From positions 248,001-312,000 of the forward strand of contig AP026155.1 in the NCBI GenBank assembly GCA_030295235.1: DNA of 64,000 bases, in the 5' to 3' direction. This DNA comes from Fistulifera solaris (Eukaryota). Made by a program: the position numbers and the translations under genes. Position 1 is the stretch's first letter. Each line of letters begins with the position of its first letter. The notes beneath the pieces are model-generated. The model was given only the letters and a program-made list of their open reading frames with translations. It did no database searches and was not told the origin of the DNA. Positions 12,467 through 50,789 of the stretch are shown in pieces.

Positions 12467-13078
12467 TTATTCGGACGTTTCTTCTACATTTCCCCGTGGT
12501 TGAATCATGGGAATCGTGACACACGAGTCTCTTCCTTGGGGCACTTTAATTTGATGATTTTCCAGATCTGTTTCCATGTTGTAGTGTTTCACGAACTCGG
12601 TACCTAATTTCAATTCAAAGGTTCCATCGTCCGCGTCATCGACCACTCGAATTGGTGTCACGAGATCTAAATGCATCGCGGTACCACCCAAATGAATTTG
12701 ACACGAACCGACGGGCAGCGTCCCTCGTAAAGCCGGATAATCATCTTTTACCAAGTGTTGCATTAGATATTCACTTTTCTGTACAGCGTTCCATTGCATT
12801 ACCGTATCGGCATTCTTCGGGTCCAAGCAAGTCGCTAAATTCAAAGACGAAGGTTTGTCGTTCTTGTCTTTCCAAACGATTCCGGCCGGAATCTGCAACG
12901 AGGAGAACTGTAATGATGATGATGATGATTCTTCATCGTCTCCTTCTTCCGGTGGAGTGTAAGCTTCCATTTGCAAACCGTCCGTCCAAGAATTAGGTTG
13001 TTGTTCTGTCATGGCGAAAGTAGTAGGATAAATGCAAATGAAAAGGAACGAAAGAAACGCCAGCAGCGATTGTTTCAT
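12467..13078 (-). CDS. Secreted protein with a degenerate retropepsin/DDI1-like domain
   Basis: Signal peptide; CLDPKNADTVM and LKLGTEFVKHYNMETDLENHQIKV resemble DDI1-type motifs. Confidence 0.55.
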   Translation of the reverse strand: MKQSLLAFLSFLFICIYPTTFAMTEQQPNSWTDGLQMEAYTPPEEGDDEESSSSSLQFSSLQIPAGIVWKDKNDKPSSLNLATCLDPKNADTVMQWNAVQKSEYLMQHLVKDDYPALRGTLPVGSCQIHLGGTAMHLDLVTPIRVVDDADDGTFELKLGTEFVKHYNMETDLENHQIKVPQGRDSCVTIPMIQPRGNVEETSE

Positions 13079-13295
13079 GTTTCAATTGTGTGCGCCTTTA
13101 TGTGATTGGTTGTTGTTTGCTGTTTTAGAAGAAATCATCGTACCAGTACCAGGTAACGCGCTGTCAATAAAAAAAGAAAAAAACAACAGACAATCATTCG
13201 TGTTTTGTGTCACGAATGGAAAGCGAACTCTGATGTCATCACTAGATCGTACCGGTATAGAAAGACTTCTGACGGATGGACAGGCAGGCACATGA

Positions 13296-13330
13296 CAGGC
13301 AGGCACGCACATACATACATACATACATAC
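13296..13330. repeat. (CATA)n microsatellite preceded by (CAGG) repeats
   Basis: caggcaggcacgcacatacatacatacatacatac. Confidence 0.8.
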
Positions 13331-13553
13331 CAGTTACAAGTACAGGACAACGAACGAAAAAGAAAGTCGAAACAAATTTTTCTCCACATCACCATGCTTG
13401 AGACAGATGACACACATCATTACAAAGAATCTTGCTTGCTTCATTACTAATAATAATCATAGACGACAAAGTCCTTCTTGTCTATTTGTCATATCGAGAG
13501 CTGTAGACGATGCTTAGAAAATATTGTTGCTATCGTTATTCAAGTTGCTAAAG

Positions 13554-15944
13554 ATGCGAAGGAATTCCCAACAACATGACGTGTTCTTTCCCATTGGCAG
13601 CATACATCATCTTTCCTTATTCTTTTTTATTATTCTTGCCATCGCGGCTCAAATTGAGCAATCGGTGGCGGCTTTTGGGAATCTTCCGTCGTATTCTTAT
13701 CGACAACAACGAATATTTGCCAAGATCCATCCATACTTCTCCTTGGTGATGAATCACAACGACAATAATATTCGAACGAACGACAACATGATTCAACCGC
13801 CATTGAATTACAAGAACGAATCATCAAAAACAATACACAAATCACCCAACAATGAACAACCACGAATCACAATATCACCCGAACAAGTCGAAGAACAACT
13901 AAAAGTAGCCCTCGCCGCATTGCAACACGTCAACCGTGAGGATGATACGTTCGCTCAACTTCGTTCCTTCCCTTCGGTCCGCGATTGCAATGCCGCACTC
14001 GCGGCATTTGGAGATGCCGGAGATCTATTAAGGGCCTTGCGACTTTTCGGAAAAATGAGAAAAGCGACCGCCTACACGAACAGCACGATGGTGGTCCCCA
14101 CACCAACACTCGTCACGTACTCGACCCTCATGTCACGCGCCATCAAATTCAGTAAACCTTTGGTGGCACTCCGATTATGGGATCTCATGATTCAAAAGCG
14201 GTCCCCGGGAGCGATACCGATGGAAGACATTGATGTCAAGGCGGCCAATATTCGCATGAATTGTTTTGCTAGAATTGGCCAATGTGCCACAGGCACAAAA
14301 CTTGTTGCAACAAATGATCAACGGCGATGGTCCCGATGTTCCCCGCTTGCCACCCAACATTGTTACATACAATACACTCTTGCACGCGTGTCAACGGGCG
14401 GGGGATTTGGATGCGGCCTTGGCCGTCGTGCGCCATATGCATCACTGTCGTCCCGATGCTCGTACGTACACGAGTCTGATGGCGACCGTCGCTCGACGAA
14501 AAAGTGCTTCGGCGGGACGGAATGATCCGTCCTTGGCGTTTGTCTTGTTGGACGAAATGAAAAGTCGAGGGATCCGGCCGAATGGCATCACGTACAGTGC
14601 CTTGATTGATGCGTGTGGGCGGTGTCGGAGACCCGATTTGGCATTACGAGGATTGCGCATCATGTTGCTGCAGAAAGCGCAAGAAGTGGAGAGTTTGTCG
14701 AAAATCAAAGGGAATCAAAATAATAAAGCAATATACACACTTCCCTATGAAGTGGGAGCTTGGACCGCTGCCATCAACGCCTGTGGGAAAGCGGGTCGTA
14801 TTCAAACAGCACTACGATTATTTCGCGCCATGCCCGGCTTTGGGGTCATGCCGAATACGATCACGTGCGGATCTTTGACTGATTCATTGCTTCGGGCGGG
14901 AGCAACGGCAGAAACACTCGATGTATTGCGGTACATGAAAAGAATGGGATAGTCCCCAGCGAAGTCATGTATACGTCTCTGATGACTCGTGCGGAGCGTC
15001 TGGCCAAAATGGAGCGTGATGGGAAATCGTTTTCGATGGCCACACAAGCACATGTGGTGGCACTAGACAGTCAACCATCCGAAGACCAACCAATCGGTGA
15101 TGCCCGAGCTATCGATGTCTATACCGAACTGATTAAAAGTCTCGTGGAAGGCGGTCGCTCGACAACAGATTATTCTCCACGAAATAATACTCTACTGGTC
15201 GAGGCGAATACCGCTCGTGGCGATGATGTCTTGGTGAAAGTGTTTTTGGTCTTTCAAGAAATGAAAACCGCCGGAACCATGCCGGACCTCGCTTGTTACA
15301 ACGCTCTTTTACGAGCATGTGCTCGAGCTGGGGATCTCGATCATGCGAATGACGTTTTACGACAAATGGTGGCGGCCGATCTATGTCCCAACGACACGTC
15401 CTGGCGACAGCTTCTTCAAGCTGCAGCTCAACAGAAGAATGGTGAACGAGCCCTCCAAGCGTGGAAGCAAGGGGTGGAGTACAGCAAGGAGAGAAAAAGG
15501 AAACGACCTTTTATGGATGAGCCGAACGTCCTTACTTGGAAGCCAAGTTCTTCATCTCTTGCTGCTTTGCTTTCGGCCCTACTCGCCGAGGCAAAAGAAC
15601 CTTTGATAAGTAACGAAAAGAAGATAGCTCTCTACAGGAAAGTAGTTGAGCTTTACGACAAGGTGCTTCTTGGTGACGAGAAGATGGGATTCGATCGCTT
15701 GGATTTAAACGACGTTTTGGAAAATCAGCGGGTTGTTATTCTATTTATACGTGGAATGTTGGGCTTATCTGAGTTTGAAGATGATCCCGTGCGCCTAGAG
15801 AGTCAACGACTTGCCGTGCGGTCAATCTTGGAGTTGGAGTGCCTGAATCAGCGGGACGAGACTTACAGATTGCCGTGGGCTGTGAGAGAAACTTTGAATA
15901 AGGCCGTTGCCTTTTCTCGAGCAAAAGCGTCTGTACATGCTTAG
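13554..15944 (+). CDS. Pentatricopeptide repeat (PPR) protein, probably plastid-targeted
   Basis: Repeated PNIVTYNTLLHAC, PDARTYTSLM, PNGITYSALIDAC, PDLACYNALLRAC; three ORFs joined by indels near 14272 and 14947; signal peptide then VAA-F. Confidence 0.9.
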
Positions 15945-25289: not shown

Positions 25290-25883
25290 TAGAGGTGTGG
25301 CTAGAGGTAAAAATGGACTCTAGTGAAATGACTAGTGAGCCAAGTCATTCTAGTGAAGTGAAAAGTGAAAAAGTGAAAAGTGGTACTGATATCTGTATAG
25401 TGTAAAGTGTACAAGTCATTAGCTGTGTCCTGAAACCGGATGCACGATACTCCGGAGTAATAGGAAAGAGTTCCCTCCTCTCAATGGTTGCTAGGAAATG
25501 GCTAGGTGTTTGCGCTACATCAACAGCTTCGGAGAGAGTGTTCTCGAGTTGTGGCCTTGCTTTGAAGCGCACAAAATTGAAAGGGACCACACTGGAGACT
25601 CAGCTGAAATTGAAGTATAACCTGGCACCCTGTGGACTGACCATTGGTGAAAATAGGCAAAGCAATTTAAGTTACTAGATAAGTAGCTATTATTTGCTAT
25701 CGCTTCTTATTCCATTTGTGTCATGTTGCCATAGTTTTTTGCACCGTTCATGTCACACGTAGGCGTTACGTAGACATGGTACACTTCTAGTGAATCAAGT
25801 GGAGTAAAAAGTGAGTGAAGTGAAAAAGTGAAATTTTCAACTCTAGTGAAGTGACTAGTTCTAGTGAAAAAGCCACACCTCTA
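25290..25883 (+). mobile_element. Non-autonomous hAT DNA transposon, 594 bp
   Basis: Perfect 13-bp TIR TAGAGGTGTGGCT/AGCCACACCTCTA; perfect 8-bp TSD GTTGCTAT (25282-25289, 25884-25891); internal hATC dimerisation remnant FPLLSMVARKWLGVCATSTASERVFS. Confidence 0.95.
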
Positions 25884-29098: not shown

Positions 29099-29984
29099 TC
29101 AGATTTTCTTTTCTTCGTCCTCTTCCTCGTCATCGTGTGAAATATCGTCCTGGTTCTTGACGCCCTTGATTTTATTTCGCTTCATCATGGATGCCAACAT
29201 CGGCTTGTCTTTCACAAAGAGATCGTGATAGTACGCGCCCTTACCACGACCCTCTGTGATGCGTTGAAAGTCATACAAGTTGAGCTGTCTTTGAAAGCTG
29301 GAAAAGCGACTCATGCGGAAGTATTTCGGCATTATAGTCTTGACAAAATCACGCGGCTTGTGGATGGCGAACGCTTTGCCGTGCGGAAGGAACGAAGCTA
29401 TCTCGCGACCTCCTTCCTGTCGTTCCAGTTCTTGAAGAATCTGATGAAGCTTTTGAGGAAAAGATCCAGAGCGTCCCTTGCGCTTGATCTCTGCAGGAGT
29501 TGCTTTATGCAGGATGCTTCCTGAGTCTTGCTGCTCGCGCAGATGCTGTGCTTGGAGAACGTTGGCAAGATCGCCCGCGTGATTAGGGAAGCGAAGATAC
29601 TCCCACACCAGGATCCGGGATGGTGGCTGCTCTAAGAGCTGCCAGTCGATCTAGGGAGCTGTTTTCGATTGGGAAGTTTTGCGGCTGCTGACGTTGAAGC
29701 AGCAGTGCTAGTGCATCTACTGGTGACCGTGCAGCAAGAGAAGCTAGACCATTTGAATCTGCGCCTAGGAGAGCGAGCTGATGAATGAGCAGGGCTTTCT
29801 GCCGTTCTTCGGCTTGCTGTTGAAGAACCAGCGAAGCAAGGATCGACGACATGTTGGGGTTGGCGGATGAAAGCCCGAGGCTTTCGCTGCCCCCCAATCC
29901 GAGGTACGATTGAACGGGAAGCATGCCTGCGTTGCGGTTGAGCAGAGCGGAGAGCTCGGCAGAAATGTTGTTTCGAATGTCCAT
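29099..29984 (-). CDS. Heat shock transcription factor (diatom-type HSF DNA-binding domain)
   Basis: SFPQKLHQIL, FLPHGKAFAIH, YFRMSRFSSFQRQLNLYDF; frameshift near 29605. Confidence 0.9.
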
Positions 29985-30550
29985 GAGGAAAAGCAATTTC
30001 GGCTATTAGATTGCGTTTTACCTGTTGTGAATGTCAATCACAGCTTGTTGTTGTCGTTGGATGGTACTTATGTCTAACTGATGGTTCGGTCGGGAAAACG
30101 TACGAAGGCCGAAAGGTGCAAAAGTTCGGCTCGAGGCAAGAATTTTTGCAACTTTCATTGCCCTCGGGCGTCCGGAGAACGCATCGGAAGTTCTATCTTC
30201 GTAACGTTGTACACTATTCCATATACAATCCAGCAACCGCTTCACCAACTTCGTTCAACTTCTCCGACTTTGGCTCCTGACGCGTGCCGCATTCCGAATC
30301 AGCGAAGAAGTGCGCTTAGAAAAGAAGAAAATCATCAAACTGTAGGGTAGGGATGGTGTAATCAGCATCTAGTGGAAACATACTATCGATTGAAACTAGG
30401 TTAGAGCCAGCCGAACAGCCTCCATCATCCCTCCAAAAGCGAAGACGTCCCGATTTTCTTCAAAATTCTGCCAGTTACATTTGAAGATTTGTTAACAAAA
30501 GGTCCAAAGTAAAGGTTCTCTGTTTCGAATAGATAAAGTTGTGGTTGTGG

Positions 30551-31207
30551 TACCAGATACCAGATACCAGGTACCAAAAGTTGAAAACGGAACATGAACT
30601 ATAGCGTTAGATGTACCGTATTGTTGGTTGGGAAAGAAAAGTAGTAGAGTAAGTTGATTCAGTACCTAGTACCTAGTAACGAGCTAGGTAAAGAATAAGT
30701 AGTCATCAGTCATCAATCATCATGAGGTCATTTTCACGAATCCGAACCTCGAACCTCGATAAACGCAAATTCGTAACTAAAGGTTGTCAAATACTACGGA
30801 GAAAATAAATCTTTCACCTTTCTCTAAACTCCGAAGAGCTTATTGCTTATTGCATGCTTTATTTATCACTCATCACTCCCTACTCTTTTTCTACGCCTAC
30901 TTCTGTCGGCTGTAGCCAAGTCCTCTCGTCTCTCGTCACTCGTTACTCGTTAAAGAGCTCTGAGTCTGATGAGCTCTCCAGCCTTTCAATTCCCAAGTCC
31001 CAAGGCAATACCATGTATTCGTGTTGAATTTACCTGGTACCAGGTACCAGGTATTGTGCCACAAACCACAATCTCAAATTGCGAAAAACAAGAAAAAAAT
31101 CATCCAATTTCGGATGTGCGAGGTGCCACGGGCCACGGATCACGATTACGGAATGCAAGTACGTTTTTTTGTGAAATCAGAAACAGGCCGCTCCGAACTC
31201 CGAACTC
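30551..31207. repeat. Cluster of about 11 unrelated 7-bp-period tandem repeats
   Basis: TACCAGA x3, AGTACCT x2, AGTCATC x3, CGAACCT x2, GCTTATT x2, TCACTC(A/C) x2, (C/T)(T/A)CTCGT x4, TCCCAAG x2, TACC(T/A)GG x3, GCCACGG x2, CTCCGAA x2. Confidence 0.85.
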
Positions 31208-31242
31208 TGTGGACTCTGGGACAGTGATATTTTCTGACATCT

Positions 31243-31323
31243 GGGAACGACGTTAAAATTCTGCCTCATCGTAGACGCTACGTAGAATGTTGTACTGGGA
31301 GGCAGAATTTTAACGTCCTTCCC
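31243..31323. mobile_element. 81-bp MITE-like element, copy 1
   Basis: 25-bp TIR GGGAACGACGTTAAAATTCTGCCTC with one mismatch; flanking direct repeat (C)TGACATC. Confidence 0.85.
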
Positions 31324-31600
31324 TGACATCGTCGGACCACACGTCGCACTCGCACGTCTTTTTTAGCCTCTTCCCTAAGTCTATGGCCATCAAGAGGATT
31401 TAGTCCGCCACTGCCCTCATTTTTTCTGGAGCGATAGACTTTGGGATACTCCGTATAAGATAAACGCATCTGGAAACAAGATATACATAATGCAACATTG
31501 CAAACTGTGCATTTTGAGAATAAATTTCAACTTCTCTGCGCTCTAGCATTTACGCCATATTACCCCACTGTTATTTCCCTTTTCATGGGAATTGCAAAGG

Positions 31601-33210
31601 TCATAACTGCTCTATCTTCGGTTTACACGAAGCAGATTTTGCCGCCAAAGAAAAACAAAGGGCACTTGACAGGTAGCCAAAGCAAACGCCCGAAGAAAGT
31701 AAAGCTGACAGTTCGTCGCTGTTTGCACCACCGGATTGACCGTAGAGGTATCCTAATATACTTGGCGCTAAATTTCCAATAGCGCCGGTCAAAGTAAACA
31801 TACCTTGGGCCGTGCCTCCGACCGTTGATCCAACCGCCGCCTGTAACGTGCTTATTGTTGGCCCGAACCAGCATTCAGCCACCTTAATTTGAATAAATGT
31901 TAGTTTTGTAGAAATCAGACGTGATAAACAAAATACTGTTGCCGAAAACTTACTAAATATTCAACAGCAAGCCAAGCCATCGCGGACTCAAATGGTATGT
32001 CGGGCTGTACTGCTAGAAACCATGCCGGTGCTGCTAGTATTGAGCCGATGACTGGCACCCACATCCGAACTCCCCCATTGTCCTGCACCTCTTGATCGGA
32101 AGCGCGAGATGAGAGCCAGTCAGCGGTTGCCCCACCCAGAATTCCGCTCATGGAAGCTATGCCAGCACTAATAAATGCCTGAGCAACCGCGTATTCTGTT
32201 TGAAAGTCGCTAAATTCCATTCTAAAGAAAGGAGCTGCCCACACTCCGATGCAAAGACCCGAAGAAAAGCGTAGAAAGCTGCCTAAGAAAATCCATCTGG
32301 CGCGCTCGGAGGACAGGACTGACGCTATATCCGATCCGATTTGTGAGAACTGATCGTCCGAATTAGTGTTAAGTGAAGAGCTTCCCTCTTTTGACCTGAG
32401 TTGCTTCTCTTGATTTCGTTCCGTATCATCATCTAATAAGAAAACGGTCAACGCTGTTGCAAAAATACCAAAGCCACCCACCACGTCTAGAGACGATCGC
32501 CAGCCGACCGACTCGTCCAGTAATAACGTCAATGACGACAATCCACTCGCGAGCGCGACTCCCGTTCCATAAATCGACGATGCCGTCGCTTGTCGATCGC
32601 GGGTGACACGGTCGCGCAGCAGCGTGTAAGCTGTCGGTGTCGAAAAGGCACACGCCAATCCCATCAACACTCGCCATCCCAGGACCAGTTCAAACGAATC
32701 CGCCAAGGAGGTTCCGATGGTGGCAGCCGACCACACGACGGCCGACGCTACGGTCAATTGCTTTCGATTAAAGCGATCTGCCGCGATACCCGCACCTAAA
32801 GAAGCTACGGCAAACAACGCTGTGAACGCCAATGAAGCCAACAGACCGTATTGCACTTGACTAAATCCAATGTCCACATTCATCGCCGAAAGGGCCTGGG
32901 CGTCGGCTGAAAAATCCACCAAATAATACAGTGATGATCGACTCCATTGGTTGGATATATAAATGAACCAGAGAGGTAAACAGCACTTCCAAAACCACGA
33001 GATCGATGGTTCGGGTGTGTCGTTCTTAATGACTTGTAAGCGCGTGCGAAGTCTTTTCGGAATCTGTTCGGCTACAAATGCTGAATGCCCGGGGACTTTT
33101 CCCAATGTAACAAGAGAAGGATATGTGGTTATCCTAGACTGAGGAACAAAGGAATAAACGTGTGTTCCGACGAGGAGTAAGCCCCACAAACCAAGTATAA
33201 GAGATTTCAT
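31601..33210 (-). CDS. MFS transporter, Spinster-like, with possible plastid presequence
   Basis: GIAADRFNRK motif A, WRVLMG, about 12 hydrophobic helices; intron 31883..31953. Confidence 0.88.
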
Positions 33211-35731: not shown

Positions 35732-35812
35732 GGAAGGGACGTTAAAATTCTGCCTCCCAGTACAAGATTCTACGTAGCGTCCACGACAAGGCAGAATTTT
35801 AACGCCGTTTCC
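35732..35812. mobile_element. 81-bp MITE-like element, copy 2, inverted relative to copy 1
   Basis: Reverse complement nearly identical to 31243-31323; flanked by direct repeat (C)GGTACCC. Confidence 0.85.
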
Positions 35813-49779: not shown

Positions 49780-50789
49780 TTTTGTACTCGCTCCTCGCAT
49801 TGTGTAATTTAACTTTCATAGGTTCTTCATACTTAGAAAACATGTCAATGATTCCTGCAAACTTGTCATCATATTGCAATAATAACTTGCTATGAGGCGT
49901 TTCTGAAGCTCGTTGGCCATAAAGGGTGGCTATAGGGTGAAGTTGTTAACTTTGGAATCAAAGTTGGAGAGTTGCGGTCGAGCATTGATGGACTGCAATG
50001 ATCACTATCCAATCGAATGTATCTTCTACGCAGCCACGACTAAACCAGCCATCAATTAAAAAACAATTATAACGGCGAAAAAGGTTCACAAACCCGTGTG
50101 CGAACTGCATTTTCAGACGCAGCAGCGTTGACTGTGTCGTTACCCAAATATTAACTTCATTTGAAACGCATCATCTGATTGTTTGCATCGACAAGCGTCG
50201 GCACCTTTCCTACCAACTTTACTATACCTCCGAAGTGTTGGGTCTCGTCACCACGACTGGATTCAGCCACGATTCATGATCAAAATACGGTAAACGATAA
50301 AAGGGGCAGAGCAAATGGGCCCTTCAAATAAATAAAAAGTGTTGATTCCTTATCGAAGGGTATTGTCCATGTCGATTCTTACTGTTGATTTAATTTGAAA
50401 TGTCGAAAGGCGAAAACGAATCATGGCTTCTTGAAGCAAGACCTTTGGTGTCTGGCCATCACACGCTAATTTAAACAAGTTAGTCTCTACGGTACCTGGT
50501 ACAATCGTCATCTTCCAGTTGAGACACGTTATTTATGTCCATCAAACGCCAGCCGAGCCCAAAAACTCTTACCCCCACTTATTGATGCAACGAAAATCCA
50601 TGCGTTGAGAATGAAGTGTCGACACTTTGAGAGTCGAGGCATTAACAAGTCTTGTAGAAAAGCTTCTTTTGAAAATAAAATTGCCGATTTTGTTGAATAG
50701 ATGGACAGAGTCCCTTGATTCGTATCCTCCGCTAATTTTTTGACCATTTGTAGCACTATCATCTGCATGTTTGTGCAACCACCACGACG

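Follow-up and report, generated by a model that had tools for sequence, protein, structure and literature searches.

Exact tandem duplications of seven base pairs crowd the promoter-side spacer of a gene for an HSF-type transcription factor in Fistulifera solaris, an allopolyploid diatom (PMC5935921), and the same period is in excess outside open reading frames (ORFs) in an unselected sample of the genome. On balance, we favor the reading that these duplications are stereotyped hAT excision footprints that keep 15 of the 16 bases of the target site duplication (TSD). That a hAT transposase is the agent, be it by excision or by abortive cutting, appears quite likely. Coordinates given below without a contig name refer to the window, i.e., the whole stretch of 64,000 nucleotides that was analyzed.

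Period-7 Arrays in the HSF Promoter

The hotspot (30551..31207) lies upstream of a minus-strand gene encoding an HSF-type transcription factor of 294 aa (29099..29984; Pfam PF00447, E 1.2e-20), whose protein is 100% identical over the query to the F. solaris protein called FisN_19Lh128 by its source, and downstream of the minus-strand ORF of an MFS transporter (31915..33210; Pfam PF07690, E 7.6e-31), the 3′ end of which forms the right limit of the spacer. It contains 12 exact period-7 runs, each with at least seven matching positions and two to three copies of differing units, starting at 30551, 30661, 30701, 30743, 30838, 30865, 30923, 30938, 30991, 31036, 31125 and 31191, as well as two further runs with six matches; all 11 of the array starts claimed in the initial annotation were recovered within a few bases. 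The excess of period 7 over other periods and over shuffled sequence is confirmed, since the remaining periods between 3 and 15 together gave a single run of at least seven matches (period 6), and dinucleotide shuffles of the interval (n = 2000) yielded 0.04 period-7 runs on average and one at most. Autocorrelation reached 0.443 for a lag of 7 and 0.337 for one of 14; at other lags it was 0.23–0.29. A 13th duplication (TCTGACA twice, 31233..31330) is interrupted by a miniature element (MITE), and its CTGACAT is single in the homoeologous spacer. The sole comparable clusters of other non-codon periods in the window are period-4 runs at 12900–13800 (6–7 per 600 bp) and four period-11 runs near 49800–50400.

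The duplications in the HSF promoter are real. Their confirmation in reads had been proposed at the outset, and every array is present in short-read contigs: a contig of run X1 over 29884–31280 differs from the assembly by no substitution and one 1-base gap, three more contigs over 30815–31373 are identical to it, and the arrays are reproduced in runs X1–X3 (contigs from four of the five listed runs were compared, X1 possibly being of the same strain as the assembly). An assembly or sequencing artefact, which could point to 1-base indel differences between assembly and short-read contigs at 29585/6 and 30575, is virtually inconceivable and was rejected, as the short-read contigs carry all arrays and the homoeolog has its own set. 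At 30575 the assembly lacks one A relative to these contigs; at 29585/6, within the HSF gene, it has one extra base, and because both short-read haplotype contigs are without it, the resulting frameshift at 29585–29586 is probably an assembly error. Contigs that we guess to be RNA cover the HSF gene and extend to about 30413, and low-depth contigs of two runs likewise guessed to be RNA span 30815–31373, which takes in the MITE and the right-hand half of the hotspot, without joining the HSF contigs. These low-depth contigs may represent a non-coding transcript or DNA carry-over; since no listed run is recorded as RNA, a transcript cannot be deduced from them. In a freshwater metagenome run (X5), one 231-bp contig, at a depth of 2.4, is identical to 31378–31608.

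The homoeologous spacer (C38:281181-281842) has nine period-7 duplications, mostly of other units, and carries no MITE, which identifies the HSF promoter site as a hotspot: what is common to both subgenomes is the site and not the sequence, and at this locus the promoter was filled with duplications separately in both. Between the subgenomes, six period-7 units are shared, and 89 and 115 are private. Private doublets correlate between subgenomes over 64 non-coding bins (r 0.66), a correlation that is weak once the HSF locus is taken out (r 0.24, P 0.06). Among alignment gaps between the subgenomes, exact duplications make up 8 of the 66 gaps of 7 bp, compared with 6 of the 156 gaps of 6 bp and 1 of the 36 gaps of 8 bp. 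At 85% identity the alignments break within hotspots, and the duplications were not polarised by them (a net +7 was seen for 1 of 99 runs). Fields of a palindromic CCAGA..TCTGG motif, found in one subgenome only, were also noted at C38:73.7-74.7, 121.4-123.4, 136.6-137.4 and 163.0-163.6 kb.

The Period-7 Signature Across the Genome

An unselected sample of three contigs (C2, C38 and C39; 734 kb) contained 271 period-7 runs, against 43–78 for the control periods. A comparison of intergenic with coding sequence by period had been suggested in the initial annotation, and it places the excess outside ORFs, where the density is 95.6 per 100 kb (control periods 5–19), against 9.8 inside ORFs. Scaled from these 734 kb, with C2 poorer than C38 and C39, the genome would hold roughly 10^4 excess period-7 events. 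When genes are approximated by long ORFs, the duplications are densest in divergent spacers (1.05/kb), followed by tandem (0.72/kb) and convergent ones (0.27/kb).

These properties bear on whether the arrays arose by replication slippage that favors steps of 7 nt, or by selection for the doubling of cis-elements, which we consider very improbable. Triplets do occur among the period-7 runs, as does a tail of long ones, and purifying selection alone could give the non-coding bias. However, run length peaks sharply at exactly seven matches (151 runs in 623 kb, against 30–44 for non-codon periods), so that microhomology is not needed for the commonest class, and the observed lengths come close to those simulated for exact duplications placed at random, with a triplet tail. 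Moreover, few units recur (of 292, 227 are distinct), they are unshared between subgenomes, and slippage predicts neither their base bias nor the phase of hAT targets described below. As the origin of the first duplications slippage is largely refuted; it may extend existing ones. In units of unambiguous phase, T is preferred at position 2 and A at position 6 (85 and 83 of 186), a bias replicated on contig C2 (27 of 54); a preference for G1, A3, T5 or C7 was not seen in the units. The class of exact 8-bp duplications is weak (29 against about 13).

In diatom-like metagenome loci (about 144 kb of unique sequence; 80 of 504 confirmed loci were kept, 24 of the 80 being at least 3 kb long), period 7 accounted for 32 runs, against 35 for period 4 and 17–27 for periods 5, 8, 10, 11, 13 and 14, and 14 of the 32 units had T2/A6; this is only suggestive of an excess in other diatoms, and of a weak one at most. 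The four closest HSF loci of at least 3 kb in the metagenomes carry no period-7 duplications. A literature search, which lay mostly outside subscription papers, supplements and the F. solaris genome papers, retrieved no published description of a 7-bp pattern in diatoms, and bioRxiv 2022.05.23.493040 yielded nothing on it.

The Adjacent 79-bp MITE

The MITE that interrupts the 13th duplication had been described as an 81-bp element with terminal inverted repeats (TIRs) and a target duplication of 7–8 bp. It measures 79 bp (31244..31322), has GG..CC ends, is flanked by a 3-bp CTG duplication (31241-31243 and 31323-31325) and is absent from the homoeolog; the apparent longer duplication arose because it landed inside the pre-existing TCTGACA doublet. 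At least 40 copies of the family exist, and among 29 of them (30 were fetched and one nested copy was dropped) the TSD is exactly 3 bp in 18 (CTG, CAG or CCG, i.e., CNG) and 7 or 8 bp in none. From its TSD and ends we take the family to be PIF/Harbinger (Tourist)-like. A second copy, inverted relative to the first, occurs at 35733–35811 in a site rich in TA-bounded words.

The distance between the MITE and the last array is 36 bp, and of 18 targets of its family 3 fall within a period-7 duplication. That the arrays are its footprints is nevertheless highly implausible, and we rejected it as their source given its 3-bp TSD and the MITE-free hotspot of the homoeolog. Since a 3-bp TSD is unable to give 7-bp scars, this MITE is a co-resident of the hotspot and not its cause. 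The earlier suggestion of cut-and-paste footprints accumulated at a hotspot is supported, yet not for the neighboring element: the evidence points to hAT elements, with 8-bp TSDs and +7 scars, and to a minority of TA-site scars.

hAT Elements and the Phase of the Duplications

A scan of 833 kb (1.6% of the genome) for TIR elements revealed five with 8-bp TSDs, three families of which were followed, and no credible one with a 7-bp TSD (there were two weak matches, one of them inside a giant inverted repeat). The three families (53 loci, five of them without a TIR pair) have an exact 8-bp TSD in 38 of 48 paired copies and never one of 7 or 9 bp, with T2 and A7 at 0.57 (nTnnnnAn). At least two hAT transposase loci exist, detected with PF05699 at C8:760084 (E 8.5e-16) and on C30; the reading frame at C8, the one of the two that was read, is broken by a frameshift. 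Family F1 is 72% identical over 183 bp to the transposase locus at C8:760144, and F2 and F3 are putatively hAT as judged by TSD and ends. At C20:554428-555225, two F2 MITEs lie in inverted orientation at a distance of about 130 bp, an arrangement that local hopping would produce.

The flanks of the hAT MITEs (±400 bp) hold 158 duplications in 38,256 bp, i.e., 4.1/kb, compared with 0.96/kb in non-coding DNA and 1.8/kb in Harbinger-MITE flanks, and their number declines with distance from the element (43, 27, 22 and 15 in successive 50-bp bins). Because Harbinger-MITE targets also fall in duplications, this co-location may partly reflect shared site accessibility. A more specific association is that of phase: of 42 hAT targets, counted after collapsing, 12 lie within a duplication and have the phase that re-insertion would give, against 1.8–2.6 for shifted positions (0 of 1000) and 3.65 after weighting by the target matrix (P 2e-5), and among runs overlapping a target 12 of 14 are in phase, with 6.0 expected (P 6e-4). 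The matrix of hAT TSDs, when slid along the units, scores positively only at offsets 0 and −1 (+28.8), the other offsets giving −30 to −89, and still reaches +20.2 on the 171 units outside hAT flanks.

A competing reading is a true 7-nt stagger made by a nuclease, a transposase (of the P-superfamily type, such as Galileo) or a repair route on open promoter DNA, with hAT elements merely favoring the same sites; we hold it unlikely. The Galileo TSD shares T2/A6 (PMC4168063), Harbinger targets are likewise enriched inside duplications (3 of 18), and a symmetric nTnnnAn matrix fits at least as well in cross-validation (the palindromic 7-mer matrix scored 24.0 after fitting, against 20.2 with the hAT model held fixed and 15.6 with an 8-mer refitted), so that base composition alone is not decisive between hAT and an enzyme of this kind. 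T at unit position 1 (0.285) barely exceeds background, whereas about 0.34 is predicted from the TSD matrix. Against a 7-nt stagger stand the lack of a credible 7-bp-TSD element in 833 kb, a phase bias that survives weighting by target preference, and an indicator model on T1/T2/A6/A7 that prefers two phases: its negative log-likelihood is 583.3 for the two-phase 8-mer (three parameters), 587.5 for a symmetric 7-mer (two parameters) and 586.4 for a one-strand 7-mer. Profile searches with PF21787 (P) and PF05485 (THAP) gave no match, the controls likewise giving none, and a search for the Merlin transposase family (PF12762) was also without a match. The undescribed process with a fixed 7-nt stagger, which the initial annotation had offered as its other option, is weakened but keeps some probability, given the fit of the symmetric 7-mer.

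Within hAT chemistry, it is also conceivable, and we judge it rather unlikely, that the transposase cuts targets with an 8-nt stagger without integrating, fill-in and a one-base overlap of the tips then giving +7. The same sequence signature is predicted by this route as by excision. Among 14 insertions of at least 3 bp inside MITE copies, polarised against the consensus and with one oversized copy left out, four are exact +7 duplications, the sole exact ones longer than 3 bp, which speaks for the excision model too. All four lie within 35 bp of an element end; this position, the highest flank density in the first 50 bp and the large excess of scars over resident elements suit such cutting. 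Yet it has no cited precedent, local hopping with excision accounts for this clustering as well, and the elements demonstrably insert with 8-bp TSDs. Excision footprints remain our preferred reading, against which the numbers must be set: two transposase loci, a lower bound, face some 10^4 scars. Nor was any site seen that is occupied in one allele and scarred in the other: three occupied hAT sites inspected against their homoeologs showed no +7 scar (one was a plain empty site and two were too diverged), and a fourth homoeologous site was not alignable.

In the HSF hotspot (30551–31207) itself no hAT element is resident. The nearest hAT MITE, a 594-bp member of family F1 with TAG..CTA ends and the 8-bp TSD GTTGCTAT, lies 4.7 kb away (25290..25883), and the TSD matrix scores +2.7 on the window's own 12 runs and +0.5 on those of the homoeolog. 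Therefore, the assignment of these arrays to hAT rests on the genome-wide pattern, from which we infer that they are mostly hAT-type scars, with two to three of the twelve being of the TA-site type instead or additionally.

Probable TA-Site Scars

A probable second class of scar is marked by words bounded by TA. In 734 kb there are 55 occurrences of TACCWGGTA where 2.5 would be expected, 52 of TACCGGTA where 6.4 would be, and 26 of TACTCCGTA where 3.7 would be; together with TACCAGTA and TACGTAGTA these words are 3- to 22-fold enriched and form mixed stacks joined at TA, while TACCATGGTA has no occurrence. All five complete copies of a 790-bp MITE, the ends of which are CCA..TGG, have TA on either side (eight loci were fetched, four of the eight being incomplete). 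The TA-site type covers about 6 of the 271 period-7 runs of the sample.

In the window, the array at 31031..31053 (TACCTGG TACCAGG TACCAGG TA) consists of three such modules with a varying middle base and, given the enrichment of TACCWGGTA, would be a stack of Tc1/mariner-type scars. The same probably applies to 30551..30576 (TACCAGA twice, TACCAGG and TA), which contains a TACCWGGTA module, is 21 bp longer than its homoeolog and was possibly duplicated further, and to the TA-bounded array at 30661..30678 (TACCTAG twice and TA), perhaps a decayed TACCTGGTA module. Enriched TA-bounded words of the window occur at 30565, 31031–31053 and 31447. TACCWGGTA is also common in some of the diatom-like metagenome loci (27 distinct in 144 kb). 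A promoter motif published for F. solaris, TABASTA (PMC5935921), includes TACAGTA, a Sleeping Beauty-type footprint, so the “enhancer” motif may partly consist of scars; TACAGTA is not among the top enriched words.

Proposed Mechanism and Implications

In the proposed scheme, a hAT element enters an 8-bp target, x1..x8, which has the nTnnnnAn bias, and duplicates it, as shown for the resident MITEs. Upon excision, one junction base would be lost per flank, on one strand, in keeping with established hAT chemistry, in which one flank base is removed per end and flank hairpins are opened by host enzymes (PMC5499845, PMC1978519). The host would then join the ends with an overlap of one base, to x1..x7|x1..x8 or x1..x8|x2..x8, and the predicted product is an exact 7-bp tandem duplication with 15 of 16 bases and no complemented base. 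Hairpin opening could leave one-base overhangs that are joined overlapping, the mismatch being resolved to either base; alternatively, one end may be filled and the other trimmed. The scar would retain the preferred target in four phases, allowing re-insertion and hence triplets and piles, which the phase test supports, and promoter-side spacers would be the preferred targets. TA-targeting elements of the Tc1/mariner type would add the TA-CCWGG-TA stacks of two to three window arrays. A broader proposal, to which we attach only limited credence, is that a single F. solaris rule, by which transposase breaks are rejoined with an overlap of the last base even if mismatched and without P-nucleotides, explains both the +7 hAT scars and the TA-CC(A/T)GG-TA scars (with TACCATGGTA missing), that hAT transposase may in addition cut promoters without integrating, and that all this amounts to a targeted mutator, with about 10^4 promoter-spacer rewrites made separately in each subgenome, that may feed homoeolog expression bias.

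If the excision model is true, counting doubled 7-mers amounts to a map of some 10^4 earlier visits by hAT elements to a compact genome, for which only two transposase loci were detected, and promoter hotspots turn over almost beyond alignment between subgenomes. The old idea that footprints generate regulatory diversity would become countable in an allopolyploid, one for which homoeolog expression bias has been measured (PMC5935921). The repair signature would be unlike the hairpin type of Ac/Ds, and the outcome of end joining would be predictable for hAT tools in this oil-producing diatom.

Comparison With Known Systems

The likeness of the HSF hotspot to PIF/Harbinger (Tourist) elements is confined to the adjacent MITE, with its 3-bp CNG TSD and GG..CC ends. 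Larger elements were also observed in the sample. A 3.8-kb TIR element at C39:174466-178320, Harbinger-like by its ORF as seen by eye, has a TAA duplication, an empty homoeologous site and TIRs different from those of the 79-bp MITE, and lies beside another period-7 cluster. At C39:160554-164520 there is a non-LTR retrotransposon, CRE-like by eye, whose frames resemble reverse transcriptase, and at C38:206369-207737 a 5′-truncated non-LTR copy with no clear TSD. Contig C2 carries a 4.3-kb element whose TIRs are long and whose frames are MULE-like (964.6-969.0 kb) and a giant inverted repeat with arms near-identical over more than 1 kb (905.5-911.1 kb).

Galileo, of the P superfamily, has a 7-bp TSD, GTANTAC (PMC4168063), and resembles the F. 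solaris duplications in this length and in T2/A6. The latter differ in having no G1, A3, T5 or C7 bias, no credible element with a 7-bp TSD in 833 kb and no TIR remnants between copies.

Tc1/mariner and Stowaway footprints consist of TA, 2–4 terminal bases and TA. F. solaris shares with them the enriched TA-bounded words, the mixed stacks joined at TA and a TA-flanked MITE with CCA..TGG ends, and re-use of a scarred TA site has been described (PMC1925063). Sleeping Beauty leaves TACAGTA or TACTGTA (PMC6943129), whereas the commonest F. solaris module adds 7 bp and TACCATGGTA does not occur.

The arithmetic resembles that of the footprints of Ac/Ds, TcBuster and Hermes, where an 8-bp TSD loses one flank base per end and the net product is one base short of both TSDs. 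Of 17 Ds footprints examined in Arabidopsis, 14 had lost a base on each flank and gained one (PMC1978519, Table 1). The gained base in hAT footprints is the complement of the lost base, a hairpin P-nucleotide (PMC1978519, PMC5873905, PMC3499496), Ds footprints having complemented or palindromic junction bases (PMC1978519, PMC5873905), and their repair depends on the host (PMC1978519). In F. solaris, by contrast, the scar is an exact duplication: complemented junction bases of the Ac/Ds type showed no excess over control periods (about 44–67%), with either-end complements in 143 of 292 units and, in hAT flanks, in 76 of 147 and 12 of 31, so that Ac-type junctions were rejected. The junction base would thus be the lost base itself, which makes the F. 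solaris scar a variant and not an Ac-type footprint. A further difference from other hAT footprints lies in the number of scars, about 10^4, and in their piling up in promoters.

A precedent for the proposed product may come from a green alga. Gulliver of Chlamydomonas reinhardtii, described by Ferris in 1989, reportedly left two footprints keeping 15 of the 16 bp of its target duplication. The element is of the hAT class (bioRxiv 2022.06.16.496473), and the arithmetic reported for it is that proposed here, with two events in Chlamydomonas and a genome-wide pattern in F. solaris.
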